DNA of 64,000 bases from Puniceicoccales bacterium (GCA_031288595.1 JAITRB010000004.1:9491-73490); one strand, 5' to 3'. Numbered from the stretch's first letter, positions 2,141 through 54,609 are shown. Notes: generated by a model not told the origin, from the letters alone. Program-made: numbers and translations.

Positions 2141-2248
2141 CGCGCAACGGCCCCCGTCAGAAGGACAGCGAGGCTTCGCTGTCCTTCCGACGGGGCCTTC
2201 CTGCTCCGCAGGAAGGCCTCCTTTGCTTTGCAAAGGGGCCGTTGCGCG
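2141..2248. repeat. Intergenic four-helix palindromic element, variant (type 2) copy
   Basis: A 14-bp outer stem CGCGCAACGGCCCC/GGGGCCGTTGCGCG encloses three hairpins. They are GAAGGACAGCG-loop-CGCTGTCCTTC, GGCCTTCCTGC-TCC-GCAGGAAGGCC and TTTGC-TTT-GCAAA. The first hairpin is built from the type-1 terminal sequences in swapped order. The copy lies between convergent sufD-like and membrane-protein genes. Confidence 0.7.
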
Positions 2249-2281
2249 GAGAAAGCATAAGAGAGCCGAACCGGGACCTTG

Positions 2282-2818
2282 TCAGTACAGGGTCGAGAGG
2301 ACGACACATCCGTAGAGACTGAAGAGCGCGCCCAGGAGGCGGGGATAGAAGAATCCCCTTTTCTCCTGTAGCCAGAGGACGAGGTCCCTGAAGCGATAGG
2401 GCCAGATGCCAAGGTAAATGGCCAAAACGATCAGCACATAGGTCCCTGAGACCATCCACAGCCTGGAAATGGGCAATTCCAGGTAGGCGGACTTCAGCAG
2501 CTCATGGGCACTGAGGAGGATTAAGATGCAAACCCCGCGGACGGCAAGGAAGTCACGGATGTGGAATAGGGCGATGAGACCGATCATGGCGAAGAAGCCG
2601 AAGAAGAAGGTTCGGTACTGTCCAAAGTCAGCCTCGCCCAGATGGGAGATATTGTACAGGAACCAGCCCATCGCCAACCCAAAGCAGAGAATATTGGCCC
2701 AGGTCGCGCGCAGCTTGCGCCCTAGAAAGGAGAGGACGCGGCCTGGAAAACAGAGCCAAGCCACTCCCAGGAGGAGAAAGGTCGCTCCGAAGAGGAATGT
2801 GCCTTCCGCTAGCAACAT
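2282..2818 (-). CDS. Hypothetical polytopic membrane protein
   Basis: The 178-aa ORF has about 5-6 hydrophobic segments and an ATG start. The start overlaps the miaA stop by 10 nt on the same strand. I recognise no family. Confidence 0.5.
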   Translation of the reverse strand: MLLAEGTFLFGATFLLLGVAWLCFPGRVLSFLGRKLRATWANILCFGLAMGWFLYNISHLGEADFGQYRTFFFGFFAMIGLIALFHIRDFLAVRGVCILILLSAHELLKSAYLELPISRLWMVSGTYVLIVLAIYLGIWPYRFRDLVLWLQEKRGFFYPRLLGALFSLYGCVVLSTLY

Positions 2819-3762
2819 GGTGCCCGATACTGAAAGAAGGCACTCAAAATGTCAAAGCTTTCATCAGGGCTCTGCTGGTCCAGGTTCAGCCTTCGGTCGA
2901 TGGGGATCTGATGGCGGAACCAGCTGCGCTGCTTGTGGATCAGTTGCTTCGTGTGCAGGAGAATGTGGGCCTTCAGTATCGCCTCGTCCCTGCATCCGCT
3001 CTGCAGCCATTGCAGGGTTTCTCGGTATCCGATGCTCCGGCCGGCCGGGCCGTTGGGGTTCAGGCCCTGGCGCTGCAATTGCCGGACTTCTTCGACCAGG
3101 CCCTGCGCCAGCATGTCATCGATGCGTCGGGCCGCGCGTTCCTGAAGATTTTCCGCTTCCCGCTCGAGCAGACAGCTGCGTTTTCTCCAGGACTGGAAGA
3201 GCGAAGCTTTCATCTCGAAATTCCTCTGCAATTCCGGAATACTTTGGCCAGAGGCGAGGCATCGGGCCAGGGCTCGCATCACCCGCTGGGGATTGCGAAG
3301 GTCGAGCGTGCCGGTCTGAGGACTGAGCTGGAGTAGTGCCTCCCTTAGGCCTGCAAGTCCGCGGCAGCGGAAGAGCTCGCTCACCTCTTCTCGAATGCCT
3401 GAAGAGATGATGATATCGTCTGTAACGGCTTTGTAAAAGCTTTGGAGATAGAATCCGGAGCCGCCTACGATGAGGACGGGATGGCCGCGGTACTGGATGT
3501 CCGCGATCCTTTCAAGGGCATAGCGCTGATAGCGGTCGACGTCGCACTGTTCGGAAATCGAACAGAAGTCGAGGCCGTGGTGCGGAACCCGGGCCTGTTC
3601 TTCCGGAAGGGGCTTGGCCGTTCCGATGTCCATCCCGCGGTAGACGAGCCGCGAATCACAGGAGAGGATTTCGGCCGAGTATTTTTCGGCAATGCGCAGC
3701 GATAGTTCCGTTTTCCCCATCGCCGTGCAGCCCGTCAAAATCCATAGTTCTGGCTGTTCCAT
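2809..3762 (-). CDS. miaA: tRNA dimethylallyltransferase MiaA
   Basis: P-loop GCTAMGKTELS is followed by SCDSRLVYRGMDIGTAKP. I placed the start at the internal ATG (MEQPELWILTG), which removes the overlap with the upstream lptD-like ORF. Confidence 0.9.
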   Translation of the reverse strand: MEQPELWILTGCTAMGKTELSLRIAEKYSAEILSCDSRLVYRGMDIGTAKPLPEEQARVPHHGLDFCSISEQCDVDRYQRYALERIADIQYRGHPVLIVGGSGFYLQSFYKAVTDDIIISSGIREEVSELFRCRGLAGLREALLQLSPQTGTLDLRNPQRVMRALARCLASGQSIPELQRNFEMKASLFQSWRKRSCLLEREAENLQERAARRIDDMLAQGLVEEVRQLQRQGLNPNGPAGRSIGYRETLQWLQSGCRDEAILKAHILLHTKQLIHKQRSWFRHQIPIDRRLNLDQQSPDESFDILSAFFQYRAPCC

Positions 3763-3766
3763 GAGA

Positions 3767-5923
3767 TTACCAGCGGATGAGATTACAGCTGATGAAAAAC
3801 CGCACGTGCTTCTTCCAGGCATCGCGGTGCCGAATGCTCAGTCCGGCCTCCAAATTCCAGGTCTGTGAAATCTGACGGACCAGGCGGTATCCGTGCTCGT
3901 CGAGACGATGCCGGCGGGCATCCCATTGAAAAAAAAACTTCCACCGAGTGACGGCATCGAGACAGCCCGAAAGCTCTGCGGAATAGCTCCGGGTGCGCTG
4001 CCTCAGGTACTGCTGTTCGATTTGGAGCTGCCAGCGCTCTCCGCTGAGAATTCGACAGGAATTTCGGCATTCCTCCCAGATCTTGGCGACGGGATCGAAG
4101 CGCAGGTCGTTCTGAAACTGCAAAAACTCGGCCGGATGGAGCTGCAGATGGAGATAGGTATGGGAAAGATGCTGGGAGTGGGGAGAAGGCGAATGGGGCG
4201 AGGGTGGTGGAGCGATCGGCCGCTGCGGATAGAGGTCTTGGTAGAGGTGGCACTGAAGCAGGTCGCGGGCCAGATGAGGGCTTTGGCCTGCGGTCTGGAG
4301 AAAATTCTCTATCCCGAGGCGCAGGACGTGGGAGCGGTAGGGCCGATCCGTGTCGCGCCGCTCCAGCAGATCCAGGATCGGGAGATGCTTGTCTCGGCTG
4401 AAGTCATCGATGCCCGGGATCTCGTCCCAGTGGCGCTCGGCGTGAGGAATCCAGCGATACTGCAGCATCGGGTGAATCACGTGCCGCAGGCCGTGGATTC
4501 CCCATCGCTCCTGCTCGACGTCCATCGGATAATGGGCCTGAAGGTCGAGGTCGAAGCCGACCTGGCCCAGCACGCGCCGAAAGGATTTTTGGGGAGAGGA
4601 GGAGCAGCTATAGCTCGTCCCGCGCAGGCCCAGAATAGGGGTCCAGCCGATACCACTTCCCCAAGAGACGGGGCAGAATAGCTGATAGGCTAACTCCGCC
4701 CGTCGGGTGCGGAGGGAATTTTTTTCCCGCGTCCGGAGAAAGGTCTCTCCACGATCCTCCCGCGATAGATGGGAGAGGTCGATGAATCCCTGTTGGTAGA
4801 GAGATGTCTCACCGATAAGCGCGGGGAAGTACTCGAATCTCAGGGAAGGAAGGCGTTGGGTAGCACTTCGGAAGCGGTGTGGCGGAACGCGCAGGAACAG
4901 GGTCGTCAGGGCATGCCGGTGCCGATAATTCGCCTCCGCGAAGGAATCAGGAAAGGGATTTTTTTTGTAATCGCCGTAATGGAAATCGCTGAAGATTTCC
5001 GAATCGCTCCACCGCTGGACATGGCTCGTGACGTGGAAATGTTCGGAAAGGCACTGCCGGTGGGCGATCCGGCATCGTCCCCTTCTTTTTGGAAGAGGAC
5101 TGGAAAAGAAATCATTTCCCCGCTTCCCGTGGTCTCGGATGAAATAGCCCTGGGCATCGAGGGCCCATGGAAGCTCGGCATCGGCGGGCGCTGCGGCGGA
5201 GAATTCCATTCCCCCTCCACAGCCTCGACGGCTGCTGCTGTCGAAGAGCGCGCCGAGGTGACTGTGAGGGCCGATATGGAGGGGCCATTGGGACTGGACA
5301 AAGGTCCCTAGCGAGGAGTCGTGCCCCAGTTTCATCTTTACATGGAGACTGCTGCCCTCGACGTCCCAGCGGCAGTGGCGGGCATAGAAGAGAGGCAGGC
5401 GGCCCAGGAAGAAGAGGGCCTGTCGGGCCTCGAGGTAGCGGGACTGCGAAAGGCTGATCTCCTTGGCTCGGACGCTGAGCGATAAGGAAGCCGGTTCGTG
5501 GAGATAGAGCGTGGCCTGGCGGGCCAAGATCCAGTCAGTCTTGGCCTCGACATCGGTCGCCTTGAGGTAAAAGGAGGAGCCGCCCAGGCGCAGATTTTTT
5601 CCCCGCAGATGGGCCCGGTGTAGGTCGCAGTGCAGTTCCTCTGCTCTGAGATAGAAGGGAGGATAGAGGGCCGATACCCGATGCGATGCATGGGCCTGGC
5701 CATCCTCCTGTCGGTAGCGGATTTCATCGGCCCTGAGCCGCAGAGAATCGGTTTGGAGATGAGCCTTTCCGCTCGCGAGCATTTCTCCGGACTCCTGTCC
5801 GCTGAGCTTGATCCGCTCGGCGCTGATTTCCGGCCCGATCCTCTCCGCTTCCGTGTTGCCGGTACCGGCTCCATGGGAAAAACAGGCGAGGACGGGAAGA
5901 AAGCCGCAGAAGAGGCGCTTCAT
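3767..5923 (-). CDS. lptD: LPS-assembly outer-membrane protein LptD/OstA-like
   Basis: There is a signal peptide (MKRLFCGFLPVLACFSHG). The N-terminus is OstA-like (SGKAHLQTDSLRLRADEIRYRQEDGQAHASHRV). It is followed by a long aromatic- and Gly-rich region consistent with a beta-barrel. The call rests on pattern only. Confidence 0.6.
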   Translation of the reverse strand: MKRLFCGFLPVLACFSHGAGTGNTEAERIGPEISAERIKLSGQESGEMLASGKAHLQTDSLRLRADEIRYRQEDGQAHASHRVSALYPPFYLRAEELHCDLHRAHLRGKNLRLGGSSFYLKATDVEAKTDWILARQATLYLHEPASLSLSVRAKEISLSQSRYLEARQALFFLGRLPLFYARHCRWDVEGSSLHVKMKLGHDSSLGTFVQSQWPLHIGPHSHLGALFDSSSRRGCGGGMEFSAAAPADAELPWALDAQGYFIRDHGKRGNDFFSSPLPKRRGRCRIAHRQCLSEHFHVTSHVQRWSDSEIFSDFHYGDYKKNPFPDSFAEANYRHRHALTTLFLRVPPHRFRSATQRLPSLRFEYFPALIGETSLYQQGFIDLSHLSREDRGETFLRTREKNSLRTRRAELAYQLFCPVSWGSGIGWTPILGLRGTSYSCSSSPQKSFRRVLGQVGFDLDLQAHYPMDVEQERWGIHGLRHVIHPMLQYRWIPHAERHWDEIPGIDDFSRDKHLPILDLLERRDTDRPYRSHVLRLGIENFLQTAGQSPHLARDLLQCHLYQDLYPQRPIAPPPSPHSPSPHSQHLSHTYLHLQLHPAEFLQFQNDLRFDPVAKIWEECRNSCRILSGERWQLQIEQQYLRQRTRSYSAELSGCLDAVTRWKFFFQWDARRHRLDEHGYRLVRQISQTWNLEAGLSIRHRDAWKKHVRFFISCNLIRW

Positions 5924-6005
5924 GTTCTGTCACTGTGAATAGGAATCGCTGAAATGGCGACAAGTCCATTTCGTTCTCGAGATGCGGGGAGGGCCAGTGG
6001 CAGGA

Positions 6006-6114
6006 TTTGGCGCCTTTGGAGGCCTTTGGGCTCCGGCCCGCGGCGCGGGCCGCGGCCGAGGGAGAGGGAGAGCTGTCCCAGCTCTCCCTCTCCCTCGGGC
6101 GCAAAGGCGCCAAA
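6006..6114. repeat. Intergenic four-helix palindromic element, type 1 (order a-b-c on + strand)
   Basis: The closing stem is TTTGGCGCCTTTG/CAAAGGCGCCAAA. Arm a is imperfect (GGAGGCC-TTT-GGGCTCC). Arm b is GGCCCGC-GGC-GCGGGCC. Arm c is a perfect 20-bp stem (CCGAGGGAGAGGGAGAGCTG-TCC-CAGCTCTCCCTCTCCCTCGG). It lies in the divergent lptD/recD2 spacer. Confidence 0.85.
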
Positions 6115-6201
6115 CCGAAGAAAGGCGAGGGGCATCGTCCCGTTCTGAGCTTTGGGATTGAAGAGCGCGGGCAGGAGCACAGACTGCTCCCAAAACCTCC
6201 C

Positions 6202-8400
6202 ATGTCCGTCATCGTACAGGGTAATCTGGAACGCATTCTCTTCCGCTGCGAAGAAAATGCCTATATGGTCGGCCGGCTACGCCCATCGGGACCAGAGCAG
6301 GGAGAGGCCGTTGTTTTCTGCGGGACCTTCCCCAGCGTCCAGTGCGGAGAACGGCTTTCCCTAAAGGGTGAGTGGAAGGAACATCCCACCTACGGCCGTC
6401 GTCTGGAGGTAAATGCCTTCGAAGTCCAGCTCCCATCGGACTTATATGGCCTCGAGCGCTATCTGGCGAATGGATTTGCCAGTGGCATTGGCAAATCCTA
6501 TGCCGCGAGAATCGTCCAACATTTCGGTCCCGAGACCTTCGAAGTGCTCTCCCGTGACATCGGCCGCCTGAATGAGGTGCCGGGTATTGGGGCACGGCGG
6601 GTAGCCCTGATACGCAAGGCCTGGGAGGATCAGGTTCAGATGCGCGACCTCTCCATCTTCCTCCAGAGCTACGAAATTTCCCAGTCGCTCTGCCAAAAGC
6701 TCCACAAGACCTATGGCGACCAGGCGCGCTCGGTGCTGGAAAAGGATCCCTATCGCGTCGCTCGCGAGGTCGCGGGCATCGGCTTCAAAACGGCCGACCG
6801 CATGGCCAGGAACCTCGGCATTTCGGACGAAGCCTCGGTGCGTCTGGAGGCCGGACTCTTCTACAGCTTCGAGACGGAGGAAATGAATGGGCATACCTGT
6901 CTCGAGCGCAGTACTTTGATTCACACTGCCCAGAATCTGCTAGGAGTAGGGGAGGATCTCATCGAGGCCCAGCTCGACCTCCTGCAGCAGTACGGTAAAA
7001 TCCATCTCCTTCCCAGTGGCCGTCTGCAGTTGGCACATTTCAAGGTCGCCGAGGAGACGATTGCCTTCCTCTTGAAACGACTCCTACAGAGAAAATCTCC
7101 CTCTCTGGGGACCATCGATGGGGACGCGGCCGTGGCCTGGGCCCAGCGTCGGGAGGGATTCGTCTTCGCCGAGGAACAACTGCTCGGCCTGCGCTCGGCG
7201 CTGACGAAAAAGGTTTCGGTCCTGACCGGTGGGCCCGGGACGGGCAAGACCACGCTGCTGCGCGCCCTGGTCGCCATTCTACGGGCGAAGCACATCGCCG
7301 TCGCCCTGGCCGCCCCTACTGGCCGCGCGGCCCAGCGCCTGGCCGAAGCGACGGGCACTCCGGCCAAAACCATCCACAAGCTCCTGCAATTCCGAACGGA
7401 TGTGGAGGAGCGCCGGTTCATGCACAACGAGGGATGTCCGCTGAACCTGGACTATCTCATCGTGGACGAGATGAGTATGCTCGACACGCGCCTGGCTGCC
7501 TCGCTGCTGCGGGCGGTGCCGGAAACCGCCTGCGTACTCTTTGTCGGAGACAGCGACCAGTTGCCTTCGGTGGGGGCTGGCAATGTCCTCAGCGACCTGA
7601 TGCAATCCGGAGTCCTACCCGTCGTTCGCCTCCGGAAGGTCTTTCGCCAGGACGATGTGAGCTCCATCGTGCACGTGGCCCATGCCGTCATTGCTGGTAA
7701 TACGACCCTGAGCGGGATCAGTGCTGATCTGTCGGCCATCCAGCCTCGGGACGATTTCCATTTCATCCTGGCGGATTCGCCTGAAGATTGCATCGAGAAG
7801 ACGAAGCAGCTCTGCCTGCTCTGCCTACCGAGCTGGTACGACATCTGCCCGCAGCGGGACGTCCAAATCCTGGTCCCCCTCTACAGGGGCAGCGTTGGCA
7901 TCGATCGTTTTAACGAGATCTTTCAGTCTCTCTATGCCCAGGAGGGCACACAGGTGCCTTGGATGCACCTGCGCCTGGGGGACAAGGTGCTCCAGACACG
8001 CAACAACTACGAAAAGGGCATTTTCAACGGTGATCTCGGGTTCATCCGAGAACTACGGGCATCGGAGAGGAAAATCGTCGTGGATTTCGACGGAGGGGAT
8101 GTCGAGCTGGGCGCGGCGGAAATCGGGGATCTCTCCCTGGCCTATGCGATCAGCATTCACAAATCGCAGGGCAGCGAATTCCCCATCGTCGTGATGCCGC
8201 TCCTCTTCCAGCATTTCATCATGCTCCAGCGCAACCTGCTCTACACCGGTATTTCCCGCGGACGCCACAAGGTCTTCATCATCGGTGACCCGAAGGCCTA
8301 TGCGGCAGCCGTCAGAAATCAAGGGAGTGTCCAGCGCTCGACGGGCCTGCAGGATCTCCTTCGCTCGATAGGCTCTCCGTCCGAAGGGCATGGGTCATGA
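6202..8400 (+). CDS. recD2: RecD2-type SF1 ATP-dependent DNA helicase
   Basis: Helicase motifs are present: LTGGPGTGKTT, LIVDEMSMLD, VGDSDQLPSVGAG and AISIHKSQGSEFP. I placed the start at the ATG at 6202 (MSVIVQGNLERI). The track extension from 6007 runs through repeat copy 6006-6114 and is low-complexity. Confidence 0.9.
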   Translation: MSVIVQGNLERILFRCEENAYMVGRLRPSGPEQGEAVVFCGTFPSVQCGERLSLKGEWKEHPTYGRRLEVNAFEVQLPSDLYGLERYLANGFASGIGKSYAARIVQHFGPETFEVLSRDIGRLNEVPGIGARRVALIRKAWEDQVQMRDLSIFLQSYEISQSLCQKLHKTYGDQARSVLEKDPYRVAREVAGIGFKTADRMARNLGISDEASVRLEAGLFYSFETEEMNGHTCLERSTLIHTAQNLLGVGEDLIEAQLDLLQQYGKIHLLPSGRLQLAHFKVAEETIAFLLKRLLQRKSPSLGTIDGDAAVAWAQRREGFVFAEEQLLGLRSALTKKVSVLTGGPGTGKTTLLRALVAILRAKHIAVALAAPTGRAAQRLAEATGTPAKTIHKLLQFRTDVEERRFMHNEGCPLNLDYLIVDEMSMLDTRLAASLLRAVPETACVLFVGDSDQLPSVGAGNVLSDLMQSGVLPVVRLRKVFRQDDVSSIVHVAHAVIAGNTTLSGISADLSAIQPRDDFHFILADSPEDCIEKTKQLCLLCLPSWYDICPQRDVQILVPLYRGSVGIDRFNEIFQSLYAQEGTQVPWMHLRLGDKVLQTRNNYEKGIFNGDLGFIRELRASERKIVVDFDGGDVELGAAEIGDLSLAYAISIHKSQGSEFPIVVMPLLFQHFIMLQRNLLYTGISRGRHKVFIIGDPKAYAAAVRNQGSVQRSTGLQDLLRSIGSPSEGHGS

Positions 8401-10518: not shown

Positions 10519-10575
10519 TGGATACTCAGAAAAAGGTGATGAAAGAACGGCGGAAGCAATTAACACAAAGAGCTT

Positions 10576-11856: not shown

Positions 11857-12023
11857 GTCAGCGGGGCAGCTTTCTTTCTATCCTTTAGCCGAGAAAAGGC
11901 AAATTTCAAAGAAGGAGGAAGCCCCGGATTTTTAGAAAAATGCCCCTCGGGACTCTCACAGTTCAGGGGAAAATGTTTGGGAGGATGGAAGGCGGCCATT
12001 GGCATCCGTCCTCGCATGGGCCT

Positions 12024-12602: not shown

Positions 12603-12680
12603 GGCCGAGAGGAGATGGGATCCTCCCGAGCTCTGTCAATCGTCGGTGAGGGAAAAATGATCATGGGCTTGGTTTGTGCA

Positions 12681-12792
12681 GCGCGATGACCCCTTTGCGA
12701 AGCAAAGGGGAAGACAGGCATCTCGCCGGGGCGAGATGCCTGTCTTCCGGTGGGAGCCCGAATGACCTTCGGGCTCCCACCGGTCATCGCGC
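12681..12792. repeat. Intergenic four-helix palindromic element, variant (type 2) copy
   Basis: The outer stem GCGCGATGACC/GGTCATCGCGC encloses three hairpins. They are CCCCTTTGC-GAA-GCAAAGGGG, a 17-bp GAAGACAGGCATCTCGC-CGGG-GCGAGATGCCTGTCTTC, and GGTGGGAGCCC-11 nt-GGGCTCCCACC. The copy lies in the divergent nudix/accA spacer. It is followed by AAAAAAACACCTCC, the same tail as copy 48459-48555. Confidence 0.7.
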
Positions 12793-12942
12793 AAAAAAAC
12801 ACCTCCACTACAGCACTTCTCCCCTTCCCCAAAACAGATCATCCATAACAAAACATCCTCATTTTTCAGTTGCTGTGCTCCTGTCGACCCCTTGGATGCC
12901 CCTCCGACCTTCGGAAAGAGGATCGATACTTGGAGATCTGAA

Positions 12943-13884: not shown

Positions 13885-13905
13885 GGAGATCAGGAATTTT
13901 CTTGT

Positions 13906-14002
13906 TTTCGCTGTCTTTGGATTCCGAAGGAATTGCCCGCTGCGCGGGCTACGAGGAGGCGCTGGCGCAAGCGCCAGCACCTCCTCACCAAAGACAGCGA
14001 AA
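13906..14002. repeat. Intergenic four-helix palindromic element, type 1 (a-b-c)
   Basis: The closing stem is TTTCGCTGTCTTTGG/CCAAAGACAGCGAAA. Arm a is GATTCC-GAA-GGAAT. Arm b is GCCCGC-TGC-GCGGGC. Arm c is 16 bp (GAGGAGGCGCTGGCGC-AA-GCGCCAGCACCTCCTC) with one C:A mismatch on the + strand, which is G:U on the - strand. It lies in the convergent accA/rbfA spacer. Confidence 0.85.
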
Positions 14003-20283: not shown

Positions 20284-20360
20284 TGGCGAGGTGGACGGGA
20301 CTTGAACCCGCGACCTTCGGCGTGACAAGCCGACGCTCTAGCCAACTGAGCTACCACCCC
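20284..20360 (-). tRNA. tRNA-Asp (anticodon GTC), CCA encoded
   Basis: The reverse complement reads GGGGTGGTAGCTCAGTTGGCTAGAGCGTCGGCTTGTCACGCCGAAGGTCGCGGGTTCAAGTCCCGTCCACCTCGCCA. The 7-bp acceptor stem has one G:U pair. The D-loop is AGCTCAGTTGG. The anticodon loop TTGTCAC gives GTC. The T-arm is GGTTCAAGTCC. Confidence 0.9.
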
Positions 20361-20480: not shown

Positions 20481-20578
20481 CTGCGCTGTCTTTGCAGGTG
20501 CGAAATGGCCTGAAAGGCCATTTCGCACCTGGGGCTCGCGGAGCGAGCTGAGCCCTGTGGGCTCCAAAGACAGCGCAG
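20481..20578. repeat. Intergenic four-helix palindromic element, type 1 (c-b-a)
   Basis: The closing stem is CTGCGCTGTCTTTG/CAAAGACAGCGCAG. Arm c is a perfect 16 bp (CAGGTGCGAAATGGCC-TGAAA-GGCCATTTCGCACCTG). Arm b is a variant (GCTCGC-GGA-GCGAGC). Arm a is GAGCCC-TGT-GGGCTC. It lies between clpC and tRNA-Asp. Confidence 0.85.
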
Positions 20579-23268: not shown

Positions 23269-23369
23269 GGGGCTGTCTTTGGATCCCTCACGGGATCGCC
23301 CGCGAAGCGGGCCCCAGCACTGGAAGGGAAAAGTTTCCTTTTCCCTTCCAGTGCTGCAAAGACAGCCCC
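23269..23369. repeat. Intergenic four-helix palindromic element, type 1 (a-b-c)
   Basis: The closing stem is GGGGCTGTCTTTG/CAAAGACAGCCCC. Arm a is GATCCC-TCAC-GGGATC. Arm b is GCCCGC-GAA-GCGGGC. Arm c is a perfect 19 bp (CAGCACTGGAAGGGAAAAG-TTTC-CTTTTCCCTTCCAGTGCTG). It lies in the divergent clpC/rpsO spacer. Confidence 0.85.
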
Positions 23370-26264: not shown

Positions 26265-26361
26265 CCGCTGTCTTTACGGGGTGAAGATGAAAAGGGACTT
26301 TTCATTTTCACCCCGCGGCCCGCGAAGCGGGCCAAATCCCTCTGGGATTTAAAGACAGCGG
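26265..26361. repeat. Intergenic four-helix palindromic element, type 1 (c-b-a)
   Basis: The closing stem is CCGCTGTCTTTA/TAAAGACAGCGG. Arm c is 17 bp (GGGGTGAAGATGAAAAG-GGA-CTTTTCATTTTCACCCC) with one G:T on the + strand. Arm b is GGCCCGC-GAA-GCGGGCC. Arm a is AAATCCC-TCT-GGGATTT. It lies between pnp and glgC. Confidence 0.85.
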
Positions 26362-27718: not shown

Positions 27719-27898
27719 CCCTCCTCTGGGTCCGCAGAGCGGATATCCCTTCCCCGGGAATGAAAAGACTTGAAAATGTCCGCCGCGCGCTTTCCGTCAC
27801 CCCCATGCCCGCGATTTTTGAGGTTCCCACCGGGCCGAAAATCTGTATAATTCTAATCATAGAGAACTGGGCGAGGAGATTTCCGTAGTCAGCAAAAC

Positions 27899-28847: not shown

Positions 28848-28958
28848 TTTTTGGGGGCTGTCTTTGCCGCGGGAGGAATGAAAGGGAATTTTTCATTCCT
28901 CTCGCGGGGGCCCGCTTCGCGGGCGAGCCCTCCGGGCTCCAAAGACAGCCCCCAAAAA
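28848..28958. repeat. Intergenic four-helix palindromic element, type 1 (c-b-a)
   Basis: The 19-bp closing stem is TTTTTGGGGGCTGTCTTTG/CAAAGACAGCCCCCAAAAA. Arm c is 16 bp (CGCGGGAGGAATGAAA...TTTCATTCCTCTCGCG) with one G:T on the + strand. Arm b is GCCCGC-TTC-GCGGGC. Arm a is GAGCCC-TCC-GGGCTC. It lies between the adk-like gene and prfA. Confidence 0.85.
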
Positions 28959-30218: not shown

Positions 30219-30313
30219 CCCCGCTGTCTTTGCGACAAGAAAAAATGTTTTTTTTCATGTCGGGACCCATGGCTAGCCATGGGCGAGCCCTTCGGGCTCC
30301 AAAGACAGCGGGG
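30219..30313. repeat. Intergenic four-helix palindromic element, type 1 (c-b-a), divergent arms
   Basis: The closing stem is CCCCGCTGTCTTTG/CAAAGACAGCGGGG. Arm c is A/T-rich and imperfect (CGACAAGAAAAAA-TG-TTTTTTTTCATGTCG). Arm b is replaced by CCCATGG-CTAG-CCATGGG. Arm a is GAGCCC-TTC-GGGCTC. It lies between prfA and tilS. Confidence 0.8.
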
Positions 30314-38151: not shown

Positions 38152-38253
38152 CCCTCCGTTGTCTTTGGATTCCGAAGGAATCCGGCCCGCTTCGCGGGCC
38201 GCAAGCTAAGAACAAAATCACTTTTGTTCTTAGCTTGCAAAGACAACGGAGGG
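38152..38253. repeat. Intergenic four-helix palindromic element, type 1 (a-b-c), twin of 39117-39214
   Basis: The closing stem is CCCTCCGTTGTCTTTG/CAAAGACAACGGAGGG. Arm a is GATTCC-GAA-GGAATC. Arm b is GGCCCGC-TTC-GCGGGCC. Arm c is a perfect 16 bp (CAAGCTAAGAACAAAA-TCAC-TTTTGTTCTTAGCTTG). It lies just downstream of rpe. Confidence 0.9.
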
Positions 38254-38280
38254 CACTTCGCGCAAGTGCGAATATTCCTA

Positions 38281-39024
38281 TCAGACATGGAGAGGAAAAA
38301 GTTTTCTCAGAGCTTCTCGCTGAGCAGGATCGAAAAAACTACTTCCAGAGACCAATAGATCCGCTCCATGCTGGAGGCAGTCTTGAGCCGTAGTTACATT
38401 AATCCCTCCATCAACCGCTATGAAAAAGGGAAGCTTATGCTGCCGCCGCAGCTTACCGATGCGATCGATCTTCATCAAGACATCAGGGTTAAAGCTCTGC
38501 CCACAGAATCCAGCTTGTACAGCCATGAGGAGCACGACATCGACCTGTTCCAGCCATGGCACTAATCTTTCGGGAGATGTACCCAAGTCACAGGCCAAGC
38601 CGACTAGAACGTTCTCCTCCCGCACATACTGCAGCATGTCTCTGCTTGTCCCTTGCGATTCGATATGAAAGGAGATGAGGTCTGCTCCGGCTTCGATGAA
38701 GCTTTCTAGAAAAATCTCCGGATGTTCCAGCATGAGATGGACATCAAAGAGAAGAGAACTGCCTTTCTTGAGGGCTTTCAGGGTTTGTGCCCCGAAGCTG
38801 AGGTTCGATACGAAATGCCCGTCCATGATATCCATATGAACCCAAGGAAGCTGATGGAGCTCGATGATTTTTTGACTGGATCGCAGATCTCCCTGATCAC
38901 CGCTGAGCAGAGAAGGGATGAGCAGCGGAGAGGAAAGTTTTTGGATTGCGGACCTTGGAGTAATAATGGTACCTCTAGGAGATTTTTCTTGAATGACGCT
39001 CTTCTTATCCTGGGTTGACCTCAT
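38281..39024 (-). CDS. rpe: Ribulose-phosphate 3-epimerase
   Basis: The motifs IPSLLSGD, VHMDIMDGHFVSNLSFG and VDGGIN are present. An N-terminal extension of about 30 aa precedes the conserved core, so the true start is uncertain. Confidence 0.88.
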   Translation of the reverse strand: MRSTQDKKSVIQEKSPRGTIITPRSAIQKLSSPLLIPSLLSGDQGDLRSSQKIIELHQLPWVHMDIMDGHFVSNLSFGAQTLKALKKGSSLLFDVHLMLEHPEIFLESFIEAGADLISFHIESQGTSRDMLQYVREENVLVGLACDLGTSPERLVPWLEQVDVVLLMAVQAGFCGQSFNPDVLMKIDRIGKLRRQHKLPFFIAVDGGINVTTAQDCLQHGADLLVSGSSFFDPAQREALRKLFPLHV

Positions 39025-39116
39025 CTCTTTTCATCCCTGCGGGATTTTAAGACTCATTCAAATCAAGGGCGAGAGTTTTCGATGGATTTCTGTGCTTCCT
39101 TTCCCCTGTATATTCT

Positions 39117-39214
39117 CTCCGCTGTCTTTGGATTCCGCAGGAATCCGGCCCGCTTCGCGGGCCGCAAGCTAAGAACAAAACTACTTTTGTTCTTAGCTTG
39201 TAAAGACAGCGGAG
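39117..39214. repeat. Intergenic four-helix palindromic element, type 1 (a-b-c), twin of 38152-38253
   Basis: It matches copy 38152-38253 except for about 6 positions. These include a compensatory pair in the closing stem (CGCTGTC...GACAGCG versus CGTTGTC...GACAACG). It lies just upstream of rpe. Confidence 0.9.
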
Positions 39215-42268: not shown

Positions 42269-42360
42269 TTGGCTGGCTTTGCAAGGGACAAATGGCTTCT
42301 GCCATTTGTCCCTTGCGGCCCGCGCAGCGGGCCCGATGCTTTGCCTCGAAAGCCAGCCAA
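42269..42360. repeat. Intergenic four-helix palindromic element, type 1 (c-b-a)
   Basis: The closing stem is TTGGCTGGCTTTG/CGAAAGCCAGCCAA. Arm c is a perfect 15 bp (CAAGGGACAAATGGC-TTCT-GCCATTTGTCCCTTG). Arm b is CGGCCCGC-GCA-GCGGGCCG. Arm a is weak (CGATGC-TTT-GCCTCG, one mismatch). It lies inside the plsX-fabH spacer. Confidence 0.8.
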
Positions 42361-43758: not shown

Positions 43759-43832
43759 TTTCGGAATCTACTGCAACCGGAATATATCTCCATACGCTGC
43801 GCGCCGGAGGCCCTGCGTCAAGAAATTACTGT

Positions 43833-43872: not shown

Positions 43873-44115
43873 CTATGGGCGAAGGGCTGATGCGAGGATT
43901 CCCTGAGAATTTTTAGCGCCGCCCAAAGCGCTCATGAATGATGCAGATTGTGGGAGCAGAGGATGGGCGAGGAATAACAGGAATTCCCTCATTTGAGGGG
44001 AAAGCATCGGCTAAAAATCCCTCCATCCTAAACCAGGATGGACCGTAAAGCTCAAATCCTCCTCAAATTCATTTCACCCGAGCTCTCCAGACTGAATGCT
44101 AGTACGAGAGAAGGT

Positions 44116-46629: not shown

Positions 46630-47178
46630 GAAGCTCTGACCAATGCGAAGTCTTCCAAAAGGTCAATTTTTCTTTCGGGAGATGAAAAATCCAGCGGCAA
46701 AAATACCTCGCAGCAGTGGTGTTCATCCCTCGGATCCCTCAGTCATTCCGCTTCATCCGGTGAATCCGCCAGCAGCCGGCATCGGCTCTGTTATCACTCA
46801 GAAGCTCTCCGAGCCCCTCCACCTCAGCTCGAAGACCGTTCCGACATCCTCTACGTCCATCCAAGCCAGTCGCGCTGTGTCCCTCCAGGCTTGAGATCTG
46901 GGGCTAGAAAAACCGGAGTGAGCCCTTAGCGCCGCTGCCGACGGAAGAGCTCCCGATCGCTTGTGAATCGCGAGCCTATCGTCTGCTGGACCGTAGATTG
47001 GCCTTCTACGTATCCTACAAGTTTTATCCTGAAGTTCAACGCCGTTTGGCTCCTGGAGAATGGAGGAATGCTTTCCCGAGCTCGATTTTCCGGGGGAGGA
47101 TAAAAAAGAACTCGAGGACATTGACCGCTAGCTCTGGCTTGTGTTCGGATACATTTTTCCTTTAATAGGAAGGTGAGT

Positions 47179-48414: not shown

Positions 48415-48458
48415 GGGTGTTGGGCCTGCAGGGCAGACGGGTGCTAGCGTCGGGGTAC

Positions 48459-48555
48459 TTGCCGGCTTTCCCCCGGAGGGCCCAGGACATCTGTCCTGGG
48501 CCCTCCGGGGAGCCCGCAGAGCGGGCATGATTCCTTTGGAATCGAAAGCCGGCAA
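48459..48555. repeat. Intergenic four-helix palindromic element, type 1 (c-b-a)
   Basis: The closing stem is TTGCCGGCTTTC/GAAAGCCGGCAA. Arm c is about 17-19 bp (CCCCGGAGGGCCCAGGACA-TC-TGTCCTGGGCCCTCCGGGG). Arm b is GCCCGC-AGA-GCGGGC. Arm a is GATTCC-TTT-GGAATC. It lies in the convergent gspF/thrS spacer. It is followed by AAAAAAACACCTCC. Confidence 0.85.
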
Positions 48556-48605
48556 AAAAACACCTCCCTGAACCGCCAGCGCATAAGCTCAGGAAGGCCT
48601 CTCTC

Positions 48606-50450: not shown

Positions 50451-50597
50451 GGCCTCCAGTAAAACAGATTTCTCCTGAAAAAATCAATCCCATTCCCTCA
50501 AGCTATCCCGCGGAACATCCTCCTCCGGCTGTCGGGAGCTCTCCGGGAAAACCTCAGGAAAGCCCCTAGGGATTCCTGTGCGGAGGGCTCAATCGAC

Positions 50598-50996
50598 TCA
50601 ATTCTCTTCCTTCTCTTCCTCCGGAGCTTCCTCGGTATTTTTCTCCTTTCGGAGGCTGTCCCAATACTTCCAGAACGAGCTGTGCTGCTCCAGCATCATG
50701 GCTTCCGAAACGGGTAGTTTGAAGCGAAGGATGAAGTCGGAAAGTGAGTGTTCCGGGAGGACGTAGTGGCAGAAGAGACTGCCGTCCTCACGGCGCTCGA
50801 AATAGACCCGCCAGCGCTCGCTGCGGTAGCGGTAGAGCAGGTATCCGTCCCGCCGGAAGCAGCTGAAGTCGCCGGATGGGTCCTGCAGGTCCTCTTCCGA
50901 AATGCGGCCGATACTCTCCATCAGCCGCAGCTGTTCCTCCATCGCCAGTTTCTGAAATTCGTGGAGGCTCTGTTCACTGAAGTTCACCTGCCGCAT
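50598..50996 (-). CDS. Hypothetical protein with RelE/ParE-like core and acidic C-terminal tail
   Basis: The start is at the internal ATG (MRQVNFSEQSLHEFQKL). The segment YLLYRYRSERWRVYFERREDGSLFCHYVLP resembles the RelE/ParE beta-sheet core. No antitoxin-like ORF is adjacent. The assignment is weak. Confidence 0.3.
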   Translation of the reverse strand: MRQVNFSEQSLHEFQKLAMEEQLRLMESIGRISEEDLQDPSGDFSCFRRDGYLLYRYRSERWRVYFERREDGSLFCHYVLPEHSLSDFILRFKLPVSEAMMLEQHSSFWKYWDSLRKEKNTEEAPEEEKEEN

Positions 50997-51106
50997 GGGG
51001 GCGATTGACGGAACTCGTGCGCCGCTGGCAAGAGCGAAAGAGAAGAGGGTAGGGGAGTGCCTCTCTCTTCCCGCTCCCTGCACTTGACACCTGGGGACAT
51101 CGCCCG

Positions 51107-52102
51107 ATGCTCGCCGGAGTGAGCGAAGCGAGGAACATCTCCCCTGCGGAAGGGTCGATTTTCTTTCGGCAGGAGGTCTTTTCCTGCCCATCCATCGTTT
51201 GCCTCTACTTCAGCTCCCTTTTCCTGGCAGCACTTCTCACGCCTCTGTTCATCCACCTGCTCCTGCTCTGGAATGTCAGGGCACCGAACGGCATTGGCTC
51301 CTACCTGCTGTCGAAAAACTTCGGGGTGATTTTCGACCGCGTGCACCTGTTCCTCTTCGCGCTGATGCTCGGCATAGGGGGCCTTCGGGCCTGCCGGACA
51401 GCGAAGCTCTGGGCCTCTGTTCGGGAAAGGCTGAAGCGGGATGGAAGTTCGCAAATCGCTCTTTTCTGGAAATTCTTCGCCATCGGTGTGGCGATGGATC
51501 TGTGCCTGATGGGCCTGCAGATGTCTTTCTTCCCCTTTACGCTCGTGCCCTGGACGCTGAAGGCGGTGAGATGGCCCCTCTATTATGGCCTGAGCGCGGG
51601 CTGTATCGCCCTTCTGGAGGAGACTTTTTTTCGCGGATGCCTCTTGGGGTCCCTGTTGCGCCTTCTGCGGGAGCGGTGGGCCATTTTTGCCAGCGCCCTG
51701 ATCTTCGCCTATGCTCATTTCAGGGTTTCGCATTCCTCTTGGGAAGCACCAGAAGCAGTGACGTTGAGGAGCGGATTCCAGGCCCTATACCGGCACGTTT
51801 TCGGTGTTTTTCAAACTGCTCCTCCGCTGTCCCTAGCGATTCTCTTCCTCTTGGGTCTCGTGCTGGCCCAGGTGGCACTCCGCCATCGCTCCCTTGCCCC
51901 AGCCATGGGTCTGCATGCAGGCATAGTCTGGATGCTCATGCTCTATAAAAAGGGTGTCGATGTGAGCGTAAATTTGCCACATCCCTTCCTGGGCACTTGG
52001 CGCCTGACGGATGCACCGGTGACCCTTTGCCCTCTTCTTTTGATGGCGTGTGGCCTGCGGTATTTGGCCCGAAGAGGGGAAGAAAGCGTCCCGGTGGATT
52101 AG
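51107..52102 (+). CDS. CPBP-family intramembrane glutamic endopeptidase (CAAX protease/Abi-like)
   Basis: The protein is a multi-TM protein. Motif 1 is LLEETFFRGCLLG (EExxxR). Motif 2 is IFAYAHF (FxxxH). Confidence 0.7.
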   Translation: MLAGVSEARNISPAEGSIFFRQEVFSCPSIVCLYFSSLFLAALLTPLFIHLLLLWNVRAPNGIGSYLLSKNFGVIFDRVHLFLFALMLGIGGLRACRTAKLWASVRERLKRDGSSQIALFWKFFAIGVAMDLCLMGLQMSFFPFTLVPWTLKAVRWPLYYGLSAGCIALLEETFFRGCLLGSLLRLLRERWAIFASALIFAYAHFRVSHSSWEAPEAVTLRSGFQALYRHVFGVFQTAPPLSLAILFLLGLVLAQVALRHRSLAPAMGLHAGIVWMLMLYKKGVDVSVNLPHPFLGTWRLTDAPVTLCPLLLMACGLRYLARRGEESVPVD

Positions 52103-52154
52103 GGTTTTAGGGTTGCGGACTCGGGGAGATCTTGCATGAGATCCAATCACCGAT

Positions 52155-53105
52155 ATGGCCCAATCTGAAGAGGAAAAACTGATCATCGTCGGCAGCGGTT
52201 GTGCCGGGCTGAGCGCGGCCATCTATGCGGCCCGAGCCGGTCTGGAACCCCTGGTCATCGATGGGATCCAGCCGGGGGGGCAATTGACGACCACGAACCA
52301 CGTGGAGAACTTTCCCGGCTTTCCGGATGGCATTTCTGGGTCAGAGCTCGTCTGGAACATGCGCCGGCAGGCCGAGAACTTCGGTGCGCGCTTCCGCTCA
52401 GATAACATCCGACAGTTACAGTTTTCAGCGGAGAGGAAATACTTGATAGGGGAGAGAGAGCCCCTGTCAGCCCAAACGGTCATCATGGCGGTGGGAGCGA
52501 CCCCTCGGAAACTGGGCATTCCAGGGGAGGAAAAATTTTTCGGCGGCAGAGGCGTCAGCACCTGTGCCACCTGCGACGGGGCATTTTACCGCCATCGGGA
52601 GGTGGTCGTTATCGGTGGCGGTGATACCGCCTGTGAGGATGCGCTGTTCCTCGCACGCCTCTGCTCGCGCGTCCACCTCGTGCACCGCCGTGACCGACTG
52701 CGGGCCTCAAAAATCATGGCAGAGCGGGTGATGGCCCACGAAAAGATCGCGGTTCTGTGGAACAGCATTCCCATTCGCATGGATGGGGAAGAGAGGCTCG
52801 CTTCCCTGCAGCTTCGACATGGGGAGACGCAGGAGGAGAAAGCCTTGCCCTGTAGTGCCGCCTTTCTGGCCATAGGCCAGGTACCCAATACGGCCCATTT
52901 CCGCAGCGACCTCCCACTCGATGAACGGGGCTACATTCTGGGAGAAGGGGTGAGGATTTCGAGACGGGAAGACCCGCAGAGCTACTTCGAAGGGATTTTT
53001 CGTGCCGGAGATTGTGCTGATCCATCCTACCGCCAGGCCATTACGGCGGCGGCCATGGGTTGCCAGGCGGCGCTTGAGGCCGAACGCACTCTCGCCGGAT
53101 TCTAG
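52155..53105 (+). CDS. trxB: Thioredoxin reductase
   Basis: The FAD site is IIVGSGCAGLSAAIYAARAG. The redox-active site is CATCDG. The NADPH site is VIGGGDTACEDALFL. Confidence 0.93.
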   Translation: MAQSEEEKLIIVGSGCAGLSAAIYAARAGLEPLVIDGIQPGGQLTTTNHVENFPGFPDGISGSELVWNMRRQAENFGARFRSDNIRQLQFSAERKYLIGEREPLSAQTVIMAVGATPRKLGIPGEEKFFGGRGVSTCATCDGAFYRHREVVVIGGGDTACEDALFLARLCSRVHLVHRRDRLRASKIMAERVMAHEKIAVLWNSIPIRMDGEERLASLQLRHGETQEEKALPCSAAFLAIGQVPNTAHFRSDLPLDERGYILGEGVRISRREDPQSYFEGIFRAGDCADPSYRQAITAAAMGCQAALEAERTLAGF

Positions 53106-53113
53106 ATCATCCT

Positions 53114-54136
53114 ATGGAGGCCAAACTGTCACTGAAAAAGGCCGCGGAAGCGGCAATAGACCCCTCTCTGAGACCGAAGGGCTTTGATGAGTTCATCGGC
53201 CAGAGGCGTACTCTGGAACGCCTGCGGGTCATGACCGGTGCGGCGCGGCAGCGCGGCGAGTCCTTGCGGCACGTGCTGCTGAGCGGCCCGCCGGGGCTAG
53301 GCAAGACGACCCTAGCGATGATTCTCGGTCGCGAGATGGGGACACAAACCCGCATCACCTCGGGACCGGTGATTGAAAAAGCTGGCGATTTAGCCGGATT
53401 GCTGACGAGTTTGGAGTCGGGCAATGTGCTGTTCATCGACGAGATCCATCGCCTGCCACGAGCGGTAGAGGAATACCTCTATTCCGCGATGGAGGACTTC
53501 TGCATCGACATCCTGATCGATCAGGGGCCCCAGGCCCGCTCGATTCGCCTGGACCTGCCGAGATTTACCCTCGTCGGAGCGACGACCCGCACCGGCCTTC
53601 TGACCCCGCCGCTGCGCAGCCGCTTCACGCTCCAGACCCGTCTGGGCTATTACGAGGTCGGTGATCTGACCCAAATCGTCCGGCGCAGTGCCCGGCTCCT
53701 GCCGGTTGAAATCGACCAGGCCAGTGCCGAGGAAATTGCCCGCCGCTCGCGGGGAACGCCGAGGATAGCCAATAATCTCCTGGGCTTCGTCCGCGACTAC
53801 TGCCAGCAACGGGAAAACCCTTCGATCGTTGTAACCCTGACCCGGGAGGCTTTGGAGCTGCTGGAAATCGACGCTTCTGGTCTCGATGAGATGGACAAGC
53901 AGATCCTGAACTGCCTGGCGGAAAACTACAACGGGGGGCCGGTCGGCATCGGCACCCTGGCCGCCGCGATTGGCGAGGACCGGCACACGCTGGAGGAGGT
54001 ACACGAGCCCTATCTGGTGCAGGAGGGCTATCTGCAGCGGACACCGCAGGGACGCCTCCTGAGTGCCAAGGCCTGGGAAAAACTAGGACTGGAACCGCTG
54101 TCGCGGAGCTCGACCCAATCCGAGATTCACTTCTGA
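53114..54136 (+). CDS. ruvB: Holliday junction branch migration helicase RuvB
   Basis: The sequence RPKGFDEFIGQ is present. Walker A is GPPGLGKTTLA and Walker B is LFIDEIHRL. The sequence RGTPRIANNLL is present. No ruvA is adjacent. Confidence 0.96.
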   Translation: MEAKLSLKKAAEAAIDPSLRPKGFDEFIGQRRTLERLRVMTGAARQRGESLRHVLLSGPPGLGKTTLAMILGREMGTQTRITSGPVIEKAGDLAGLLTSLESGNVLFIDEIHRLPRAVEEYLYSAMEDFCIDILIDQGPQARSIRLDLPRFTLVGATTRTGLLTPPLRSRFTLQTRLGYYEVGDLTQIVRRSARLLPVEIDQASAEEIARRSRGTPRIANNLLGFVRDYCQQRENPSIVVTLTREALELLEIDASGLDEMDKQILNCLAENYNGGPVGIGTLAAAIGEDRHTLEEVHEPYLVQEGYLQRTPQGRLLSAKAWEKLGLEPLSRSSTQSEIHF

Positions 54137-54204
54137 GGGGTGCTAAAGAACTTGACAGTGGCTGCTTTCTGCCCTCCTTAGGGAGGATAGGAAGGCTTAT
54201 ACAT

Positions 54205-54453
54205 TTGACCATGACCGGAGAGGAAATTCACAAGGTGATTTTGGACATCATTCGGGAAATCGCACCGGATCAGGATCTCTCACGGGTAAAGCCGGAGCTT
54301 CCACTGCGGGAGCAGTTGGATTTGGATTCGATGGATTTTCTGGACATCGTGATGGAGCTGCGCAAGCGCCATAACATCGAGGTTCCGGAAGCGGATTACC
54401 CACGCCTGGAGTCCCTGGATTCCTGCGCGGAATATTTGGCAGACAAGTTCTAG
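54205..54453 (+). CDS. Acyl carrier protein-like (phosphopantetheine attachment site)
   Basis: The ORF is 82 aa with an LDLDSMDFLDIVMEL attachment motif (DSM serine). The start is TTG, with an ATG 2 codons in. No fab or polyketide genes are adjacent. Confidence 0.7.
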   Translation: MTMTGEEIHKVILDIIREIAPDQDLSRVKPELPLREQLDLDSMDFLDIVMELRKRHNIEVPEADYPRLESLDSCAEYLADKF

Positions 54454-54509
54454 CTCTAGCTCTTCCCCGAGGGAAAATTTCAGGAGACCCAAGGGCTAGG
54501 GAGGCTTAA

Positions 54510-54609
54510 GGTCGCCTTTGGAGCCTTCGGCTCCGGCCCGCTGCGCGGGCCCCGCCGAGGGGAAAGGGAAGAGAAATCTCTTCCCTTTCCCCTCGGCGTA
54601 AAGGCGACC
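54510..54609. repeat. Intergenic four-helix palindromic element, type 1 (a-b-c)
   Basis: The closing stem is GGTCGCCTTTG/TAAAGGCGACC, with the innermost pair G:T on the + strand. Arm a is GGAGCC-TTC-GGCTCC. Arm b is GGCCCGC-TGC-GCGGGCC. Arm c is a perfect 20 bp (GCCGAGGGGAAAGGGAAGAG-AAAT-CTCTTCCCTTTCCCCTCGGC). It lies between the ACP and the lolD-like gene. Confidence 0.85.

Follow-up and report, generated by a model that had tools for sequence, protein, structure and literature searches.

A 64,000-nt stretch of a termite-gut Puniceicoccales bacterium genome (GCA_031288595.1 JAITRB010000004.1:9491-73490; hereafter the window) carries a dense set of intergenic repeats, and raises the question of what these repeats are, how they spread and what keeps them. 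An earlier note, made from the sequence alone, described 12 copies of one sequence type (type 1) and two variants, each predicted to fold as a closed four-way junction. We found all 14 sequences at their reported coordinates and followed them into related genomes. The family is real, abundant and confined to a narrow clade, and it behaves like a previously undescribed repeat family, an unusual relative of the palindromic repeats of the REP/REPIN/MITE type.

Four-way-junction repeats in the window and in related genomes

The minimum free energy (MFE) fold of every copy, computed with RNA parameters on both strands, encloses three hairpins in a closing stem and leaves 0-5 junction bases of each copy unpaired, at free energies of -59 to -98 kcal/mol. 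DNA parameters gave the same fold, with z-scores of -9.6 to -14.7 against 200 dinucleotide shuffles per copy, none of which folded as well as the real copy; the MFE structure accounts for 20-74% of the ensemble with these parameters. Folding thus supports the closed four-way junction for all 14 copies, on either strand and with RNA or DNA parameters. We also used a family-agnostic junction scanner, which starts from pairs of inverted 7-mer seeds separated by 60-150 nt and keeps a candidate if, once refolded, it has three branches and no more than 10 junction bases unpaired. The scanner found 14 strong four-way junctions in the window, as against 0, 0, 0, 1, 0 and 0 in six dinucleotide-preserving shuffles.

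We also built a covariance model from 57 copies, leaving out those that begin at 6006 and 30219 (copies are named here by their first position), and searched the window with filters off. The model recovers all 12 type-1 copies at 62-93 bits, six per strand, together with the two variants at 40.5 and 30.8 bits, and nothing beyond these 14 rises above 18 bits in the whole window. The search adds no further copy to the earlier list, which was complete and accurately described, down to its six type-1 copies in each orientation. Together the 14 copies amount to 1417 nt, or 2.2% of the window and one copy per 4.6 kb, which matches the density first estimated. Their conserved parts stand out by simple counting as well. 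The motif GCTGTCTTTG, allowing at most one mismatch, occurs 21 times in the window (4.3 expected), and GCCCGCNNNGCGGGC occurs 10 times (0.7 expected), always within a copy, in agreement with the report that arm b is GCCCGC-N3-GCGGGC in 10 of the 12 type-1 copies.

The family extends beyond the window. A pattern scan covering one genome per species returned 41 loci (given below by L numbers), almost all from the termite-gut Puniceicoccales metagenome-assembled genomes (MAGs) Pcl387_bin38, Pcl387_bin136 and Ct408_bin121, and the junction scanner found at least 93 elements in 248 kb of these three related MAGs. It found none in the Roseobacter, Acetobacter, gammaproteobacterial and Clostridia loci (L012, L018, L020, L033) or in the Opitutales locus (L039); these stray pattern matches form no junction, and we rejected them as chance matches. 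A metagenome scan with a slightly looser pattern gave 77 loci, all of them chance matches in 62-74% GC DNA without an element. The type-1a pattern is absent from viral contigs, and blastn of the copy at 28848-28958 against plasmids and phages gave no match. Full-text literature searches turned up no account of a termite-gut Puniceicoccales four-way-junction repeat family. With plasmids, phages and viral contigs negative and no description in the literature, the earlier statement that the repeats match no known repeat family holds.

The same is true of structured RNA. In the window, Rfam 15 at the gathering threshold and ARAGORN identified only a tRNA-Asp, and three elements searched against Rfam at E<=1 drew just two spurious sub-threshold eukaryotic matches, so that neither threshold gave a credible match to a known structured-RNA family. 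Identity with a known structured RNA, including tRNA and tmRNA, was rejected because no curated covariance model matches the elements. A broader proposal is that the elements are small structured RNA genes, tRNA-like or other, or recombination sites marking gene cassettes, like the attC sites of integrons. The cloverleaf-like shape speaks for it, several single genes are bracketed by similar copies in direct orientation, and attC sites are likewise conserved in structure and variable in sequence. We regard it as highly improbable and largely refuted already: ARAGORN and Rfam yield only the genuine tRNA-Asp, the three arms lack tRNA dimensions and loops, the elements are not framed by a promoter or terminator, and copies occur in both orientations. 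Moreover, the bracketed genes are syntenic housekeeping genes rather than cassettes, and there is no integrase among the Pfam-annotated genes (~30 of the ~50 window genes and 10 locus genes). An attC site is a single imperfect hairpin with R/L boxes that follows promoterless cassettes near intI, whereas the present unit is a four-way junction.

Anatomy, sequence types and compensated changes

The unit measures 70-130 nt, and its closing stem of 8-20 bp, the inner ~10 bp of which are conserved, provides it with terminal inverted repeats around the three hairpins. The junction-proximal part of this stem reads GCTGTCTTTG/CAAAGACAGC, GCCGCCTTT or GC(T/C)GGCTTT in type 1. The outer stem varies in sequence from copy to copy with complementarity always kept, and is usually continued by a T-tract 5' and an A-tract 3' of the unit. 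In type 1, arm a is 6-7 bp long (GATTCC, GAGCCC, GCTCCC, GATCCC, among other sequences) and arm b reads GCCCGC-N3-GCGGGC; the median arm c measures 40 nt, and linkers take up 0-2 nt. About 70% of the triloops of arms a and b are GNA or its complement TNC, in roughly equal numbers.

Arm c had been described as differing in nearly every copy. It does vary, but not at random. Its 5' half is nearly free of T (purine-rich), many copies have a distal core ATGAAA..TTTCAT in common, and orthologues and recent paralogues share their arm c. The arm has structure at the level of the family and passes on together with the rest of the unit. The idea that arm c is a local terminator captured at each site was rejected because the arm travels with the unit to unlinked loci. 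A second idea, that free-living hairpin modules are assembled in place, was rejected because the modules were never found standing alone. A loose pattern search for orphan halves of the closing stem, itself noisy, brought up only a few copies, truncated or degenerate, at the ends of contigs.

The two variants are present as described, but they belong to a separate sequence type (type 2, which comprises these two and eight or nine more copies) and have only the topology in common with type 1. A third type is a unit of 68-79 nt with three short hairpins. The three types thus have distinct sequences and the same topology. Some hairpin modules are common to several types: GCTCGC-N3-GCGAGC is arm a of type 3 and also arm b of some type-1 copies.

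The helices change in step on their two sides. In a MAFFT alignment of 57 type-1 copies, standard pairs make up 94.3% of cells, as against 76.0 +/- 0.5% in 500 shuffles (none of which, 0/500, reached the observed value) and only 38-49% when partners are slid by 1-3 columns; the observed pairing thus far exceeds both controls. Changes on both sides are seen in 29 of 37 pairs, and the paired changes first noticed in arm a and the closing stem are borne out at 6 of 6 and 8 of 12 pairs, respectively. The stems are nearly all Watson-Crick, with few mismatches (1565 pairs to 54 mismatches in arm c, 626 to 2 in arm a). Part of this covariation signal reflects subfamily expansions rather than independent events. 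Between closest homologues (19 pairs) we counted 56 compensated double changes and 17 one-sided changes, or ~14 and 13 when only well-registered pairs are used. The prfA/tilS spacer holds an orthologous element in all four species, in which arm c has diverged with compensation and arm b has been replaced by another palindrome in two of the four. All four helices stay complementary even as both of their sides change.

Several further features of the units and their surroundings were seen. The glgC/adk spacer of the window contains a lone arm-b-like hairpin, TCCGC-AGA-GCGGA, at 27745-27760; the same position in bin38 (L014 6380-7000) holds a full element and ~200 nt of tandem GCAGAGCTGAT..TTGGGGcTGTCAGAC repeats. 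Tracts of GGGTGGGTGGG, potential G-quadruplexes, occur 11 times in bin38 loci, beside elements or within arms b and c, and not in the window; their sites include L015 2149, L016 3595, L034 2685, L027 4765, L029 3042, L040 4364, L006 392/439, L021 136 and L038 2765. At L006 195-330, the outer 12-15 nt of the closing stem of one element are tandemly duplicated on both of its sides (GGGGCTGTCTTT-TTTGGGGCTGTCTTTG ... AAAGACAGCCCC-AAAAAAGACAGCCCC), which may be the footprint of a slippage or copying event. Finally, the 5' strand of the closing stem enters the junction of all type-1 copies as ..CTTTG, and the opposing strand lacks a matching site. Speculatively, this fits what we take to be the preferred RuvC cleavage sequence, (A/T)TT|(G/C).

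Spread, persistence and placement of the copies

Complete units turn up again at unlinked loci between unrelated flanks, and their identity of 85-95% extends to arm c. Near-identical sets are formed by type-1b copies in Ct408_bin121 and bin136, and by L008 907 and L026 3527 in bin38 (93%). Direct repeats of the kind left by target-site duplication are absent from the flanks of 87-92 type-1 copies and from those of 11 recent type-1b copies; all these flanks show just the inverted continuation of the stem and the T/A tracts. Some recent copies have an extra 15-30 nt in common on one side only, and therefore the copied unit is asymmetric and can exceed the fold. A ~30-nt 5' leader, CCGTCTCC-N8-CCGGCGG, stands outside the junction of the recent type-1b copies L010 310, L013 5742 and L032 3794/5004/7883, and the recent pair L008 907 and L026 3527 has a ~30-nt 3' trailer in common.

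Near-identical copies in direct orientation also often occupy adjacent spacers around a single housekeeping gene (in the window rpe; in bin38 eno and pheS), which suggests local copying or local gene conversion. Elsewhere copies are clustered side by side (L034 6851/7020/7146 and L003 3509/3663/3796), and several spacers hold an element in bin38 and none in the window. In sum, what is copied is the whole junction with its arm c, sometimes together with 15-30 nt of one flank; the copies land in any intergenic DNA, in either orientation and without target-site duplication, and some have since been retained in the same spacer across species whose genes are 70-85% identical.

The reading we prefer, at a probability of roughly one half, is that the family consists of lineage-specific palindromic DNA repeats of the REP/REPIN/MITE kind, non-coding and non-autonomous, which a separate enzyme copies from an intermediate that is single-stranded and folded. 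The unit would spread by way of folded single-stranded DNA, for example on the lagging-strand template, and the intermediate would be handled in trans by a structure-specific enzyme encoded elsewhere in the genome. A candidate kind is an HUH/Y1 transposase-like protein, in the role that RAYT has for REPINs and TnpA for IS200/IS605. The putative recognition surface would be made up of the junction-proximal pairs, which are conserved, and of the two short hairpins with GNA/TNC loops, with the closing stem presumably joining the two ends. Selection on the fold could keep the stems perfect; so could intrastrand template-switch correction of quasi-palindromes, alone or together with selection. A host-level use, whether as an RNA cis element or as a DNA structure, may be layered on this mobile-element origin.

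Several observations weigh against such a copied element. No clean pair of empty and filled sites was found among the nearest available genomes, which are 70-89% identical and have barely alignable spacers. A tblastn search with E. coli RayT of the window and the Puniceicoccales loci (312 kb from four genomes, a fraction of each) gave no match below E=1; no mobilising enzyme was found among the element-adjacent genes, and the element-bracketed genes are housekeeping by Pfam. An element is kept in the same spacer in four species, and the closing stem and arms a and b are strongly conserved beside unalignable flanks, both of which a host function would explain equally well. No insertion into a gene was seen, a pattern that would be unusual among some MITE families, and the window copies are old, the only near-identical pair being 38152/39117.

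Alternatively, the four-way junction itself may be what is recognised and selected, with junction-specific machinery (a transposase, a recombinase, or a host protein that binds or resolves junctions) mobilising or exploiting folded DNA or RNA units. We put this forward tentatively, as a possibility at no better than modest odds. It would explain why a zero-linker topology and GNA/TNC triloops are common to at least three sequence-unrelated types in the same genomes, and it would also explain the junction-centred conservation and the persistence at orthologous sites across species.

The placement of the copies bears on possible host functions. By codon-score gene calls and Pfam no copy lies within a gene, as the earlier note held. 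The longest RecD2 open reading frame does start at 6007, inside copy 6006; we count this copy as intergenic because the likely true start is an ATG near 6202. The neighbours are all housekeeping genes, among them lptD, recD2, accA, rbfA, infB, clpB, rpsO, pnp, glgC, adk, prfA, tilS, prmA, rpe, lptE, fabH, plsX, gspF, thrS, ruvB and an acyl carrier protein (ACP) gene. Copies lie at the borders of tightly packed gene clusters, such as nusA-infB-rbfA, lptE-fabH and that of ruvB, never inside them, and about half of the spacers longer than ~130 nt are occupied (tally from gene and element coordinates). Spacers of all kinds are used, as had been noted, co-directional, convergent and divergent, including divergent promoter regions. 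Divergent spacers, in which a copy is upstream of both genes, hold 15 of the 67 type-1 copies that were classified and 3 of the 14 in the window, and in co-directional spacers the element starts 27-172 nt past the upstream stop. A/T tracts border the GC-rich core.

One function that such positions might serve is that of an RNA cis element in 3' untranslated regions and inter-operon spacers, working in either orientation as a stable block to 3'-5' exonucleases, as a processing site for RNase III or another enzyme, or as a terminator or insulator independent of a U-tract. Its support comes from the copies that border gene clusters or follow upstream stops at short range, and from the retention of orthologous copies in four species. 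Canonical terminator-like sites are at background (19, with 20.2 expected, between 20 and 40 kb), which would make another 3'-end signal useful. In addition, a TNC loop closed by C-G would correspond to a cUNCGg tetraloop in RNA.

The strand tests count on the other side. Within co-directional spacers there is no orientation bias relative to transcription (a-b-c order in 17 versus 24), and on the sense strand we found neither a loop bias (GNA 36 versus UNC 44, p=0.43, hence no UNCG excess) nor a wobble bias (9 G.U, or G.T, versus 12 A.C mismatches). G.U pairs are very rare overall, and a 4:1 bias typical of RNA is rejected (binomial estimate, p ~1e-4). Because orientation, wobble and loop show no bias relative to transcription, a strand-specific RNA role is disfavoured; the results argue against it and agree with a DNA palindrome in which pairing is important to the single-stranded form or arises from the copying process. 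The mismatch counts are small, and an orientation-independent RNA role thus remains compatible with them. The divergent copies upstream of both genes are a further difficulty, as is flank polarity: the T-tract lies 5' and the A-tract 3' of the structure on both strands, the reverse of an intrinsic terminator. Intrinsic (Rho-independent) terminators were themselves rejected on flank polarity and on the background-level site counts. On balance we consider an RNA cis element unlikely as the main explanation.

A host function at the DNA level would have extruded cruciform-like junctions or folded lagging-strand DNA used as sites by junction-binding or architectural proteins, HU, gyrase or RuvA-like proteins among them, for nucleoid organisation or for absorbing or insulating transcription-driven supercoils between transcription units. 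A supercoiling or nucleoid role of this kind has been proposed for BIMEs. The strand symmetry, the perfect Watson-Crick stems, the zero-linker junction and the GNA triloops are all DNA-like, GNA being the most stable minihairpin loop in DNA. The A/T tracts flank a GC-rich core, and AT-rich flanks promote cruciform extrusion. Placement between transcription units of every relative orientation and long-term retention at orthologous sites also agree with it. Several proteins are reported to bind REPs (PMC2817692), and a link between a REP-derived RNA and chromosome organisation is reported (PMC4550694). Yet the halves of the closing stem are 70-90 bp apart, which would make full extrusion kinetically unlikely unless the arms extrude first, and arms of 6 bp are too short for stable cruciforms. 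The near-identical bursts and the differences in spacers between species look selfish rather than like a fixed functional set, and only about half of the larger spacers are occupied. We regard this function as quite improbable.

The window copies and their relation to described repeats

Unless another type is named, the copies in this section are type 1. Copy 6006-6114 (+, a-b-c; closing stem GGCGCCTTT) occupies the divergent spacer lptD/recD2 and reaches 68.3 bits though it was left out of covariance-model training (z -9.9). Around accA lie two units. The first, 12681-12792 (+, type 2; 30.8 bits, z -14.7), separates accA from a divergently transcribed NUDIX gene. It has closing stem GCGCGATGACC, a CCTTTGC-GAA-GCAAAGG arm and two further arms that are long and variable; its arm c and that of L031 932, an element on the opposite side of accA in bin38, are 86% identical. 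The second, 13906-14002 (+, a-b-c; 66.3 bits), stands in the convergent spacer accA/rbfA, 21 nt past the accA stop, and the counterpart position in bin38 holds an element (L031 769-879) with a different arm c. The other type-2 copy, 2141-2248 (-; 40.5 bits, z -12.9), follows sufD in a convergent spacer. Its closing stem is CGCGCAACGGCC, its arms are a conserved CTTTGC-AAA-GCAAAG and two long variable ones, and its homologue is L027 143.

Two copies flank clpB. Copy 20481-20578 (-, c-b-a on the + strand; 84.7 bits), which has the arm b variant GCTCGC, is located between tRNA-Asp (-) and the clpB stop. Compared with its bin38 orthologue, L006 3353-3450, the closing stem, arm a and arm b are nearly unchanged and a 5-nt block of arm c is wholly different and fully compensated. 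The tRNA-Asp (GTC) gene, at 20284-20360 (-), is 120 nt from this element and is the only Rfam/ARAGORN match of the window. Copy 23269-23369 (+, a-b-c; 87.7 bits) lies in the divergent spacer clpB/rpsO, 53 nt upstream of the clpB start, and has its orthologue at L006 210-318.

The next three copies are all on the minus strand. Copy 26265-26361 (c-b-a on the + strand; 86.9 bits) is in the co-directional spacer pnp/glgC, which holds a type-1b copy in bin136 (L002 7788) and in Ct408_bin121 (L013 5742). Copy 28848-28958 (c-b-a; spacer adk/prfA) has a 19-bp closing stem, TTTTTGGGGGCTGTCTTTG, scores 93.1 bits, and differs from its orthologue L014 5297-5410 by compensated changes in arm c. In copy 30219-30313 (c-b-a; spacer prfA/tilS), the palindrome CCCATGGC-TA-GCCATGGG has replaced arm b; this copy scores 62.5 bits though it, too, was left out of training.

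The copies around rpe, 38152-38253 (+, a-b-c; 27 nt past the rpe stop; 89.5 bits) and 39117-39214 (+, a-b-c; between lptE and rpe; 88.2 bits), are near-identical direct-repeat partners, with arm c 92% identical and closing stems that differ by one compensated pair (T-A versus C-G). The bracketed gene (38281-39024, -) has a GC content at third codon positions of 0.51, as against 0.66-0.83 in its neighbours, and a codon score of 14, as against 27-225; its nearest homologues are only ~60% identical, and the pair that brackets it in direct orientation is the only near-identical one in the window. The exact Rpe protein is on record only in the source MAG and in one 981-nt Logan contig, and the RuvB protein of the window is not on record. 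That contig (L119, compared with window 38152-39214), the sole other one to bear rpe, ends inside the flanking elements on both sides.

Of the remaining three, two are type 1c on the minus strand: 42269-42360 (plsX/fabH; 67.6 bits), with closing stem GCTGGCTTT, a weakened arm a, CGAGGCAAAGCATCG, and L019 5321 as closest homologue, and 48459-48555 (82.4 bits), with closing stem GCCGGCTTTC, in the convergent spacer gspF/thrS. The last, 54510-54609 (+, a-b-c; closing stem GGTCGCCTTT, arm a GGAGCC; 71.3 bits), comes after the ruvB/acyl-carrier-protein gene pair and is closest to L003 3796.

REPINs are the closest described system. A REPIN is a doublet of the same REP, inverted around a spacer, with conserved inverted ends and a spacer constrained mainly in its pairing ability, in which compensatory changes are frequent; it has an alternative 'clover' fold and a single-stranded intermediate (PMC3116915), and RAYT acts on it in trans (PMC3116915; PMC2817692). 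The present family likewise consists of abundant, extragenic and non-coding units of ~70-110 nt with conserved inverted ends, a middle constrained mainly by pairing and common compensatory changes, and is predicted to fold, 'clover' included, as single-stranded DNA or mRNA. Several sequence flavours per genome, clusters and tandem copies, and vertical persistence beside copying complete the likeness. The differences are as marked. In a REP, an imperfect palindrome of 20-40 nt follows a conserved head, GT(A/G)G (PMC2817692), whereas position tables and flank listings show this head nowhere in the present family: the sequence before arm a is ..CTTTG, that before arm b is the 3' end of arm a, and the closing stem starts GCTG, GCCG or GGTC. 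The unit here comprises three different hairpins in a fixed, asymmetric a-b-c order, and its only inverted pair is the closing stem. The four-way junction is its MFE fold, whereas the clover is the less favoured fold of a REPIN. The 312 kb searched yielded no RAYT, and the host is a verrucomicrobium.

Bacterial MITEs such as Correia, ERIC, RUP and Nezha (reviews: PMC3184786, PMC10969869) offer a second comparison. The size range, the terminal inverted repeats (here the closing stem), the intergenic, non-autonomous and multi-copy character and the predicted structure of the single strand are alike. The present family departs from them in having no target-site duplication, no parent insertion sequence that we could find and no visible insertions into genes; its interior is three independent perfect hairpins in place of one long imperfect stem, and its outer terminal repeat varies between copies with constant complementarity. 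BIMEs, the REP mosaics of enterobacteria, are modular sets of short GC-rich palindromes in extragenic DNA and are reported to bind host proteins (PMC2817692). The hairpin modules common to several types recall them, but BIMEs are linear, alternating REPs with linkers, whereas here there is a closing stem, linkers are almost absent and modules never occur singly.

IS200/IS605 elements, like the present family, lack target-site duplications, but they have no terminal inverted repeats and insert beside a fixed tetra- or pentanucleotide with a replication strand bias. They depend on short hairpins recognised in single-stranded DNA. Such recognition is discussed in PMC3116915, and by analogy hairpins of the present family may be recognised in the same way. 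The double-hairpin elements and GC-cluster palindromes of fungal and algal mitochondria are also small, mobile, multi-hairpin intergenic units defined by structure more than sequence (cf. PMC4524435); these mitochondrial units have two hairpins in place of a closed four-way junction, reside in organelle genomes and bear no sequence relationship to the units described here. Overall, the family fails the defining features of REPs, and its terminal inverted repeats are MITE-like, yet it has no target-site duplication and no known parent insertion sequence. What is distinctive is a zero-linker four-way junction as a stable conserved unit, and several unrelated sequence types with that topology.

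A practical consequence is that the elements appear to break short-read assemblies of these genomes into fragments; the contigs of the related MAGs are short. REPs, REPINs and MITEs are usually single hairpins, and how they are copied and what value they have to the host are long-standing questions. The present family shows recent bursts as well as orthologous copies that keep their pairing through many compensated changes. It is thus a clean system for asking whether selection or template-switch correction maintains palindromes, whether a structure-specific enzyme handles branched single-stranded DNA, and whether such elements punctuate transcription units. Were the junction itself to prove the recognised feature, the family would represent a new class of structure-defined genetic element and not a variant of REP or MITE.

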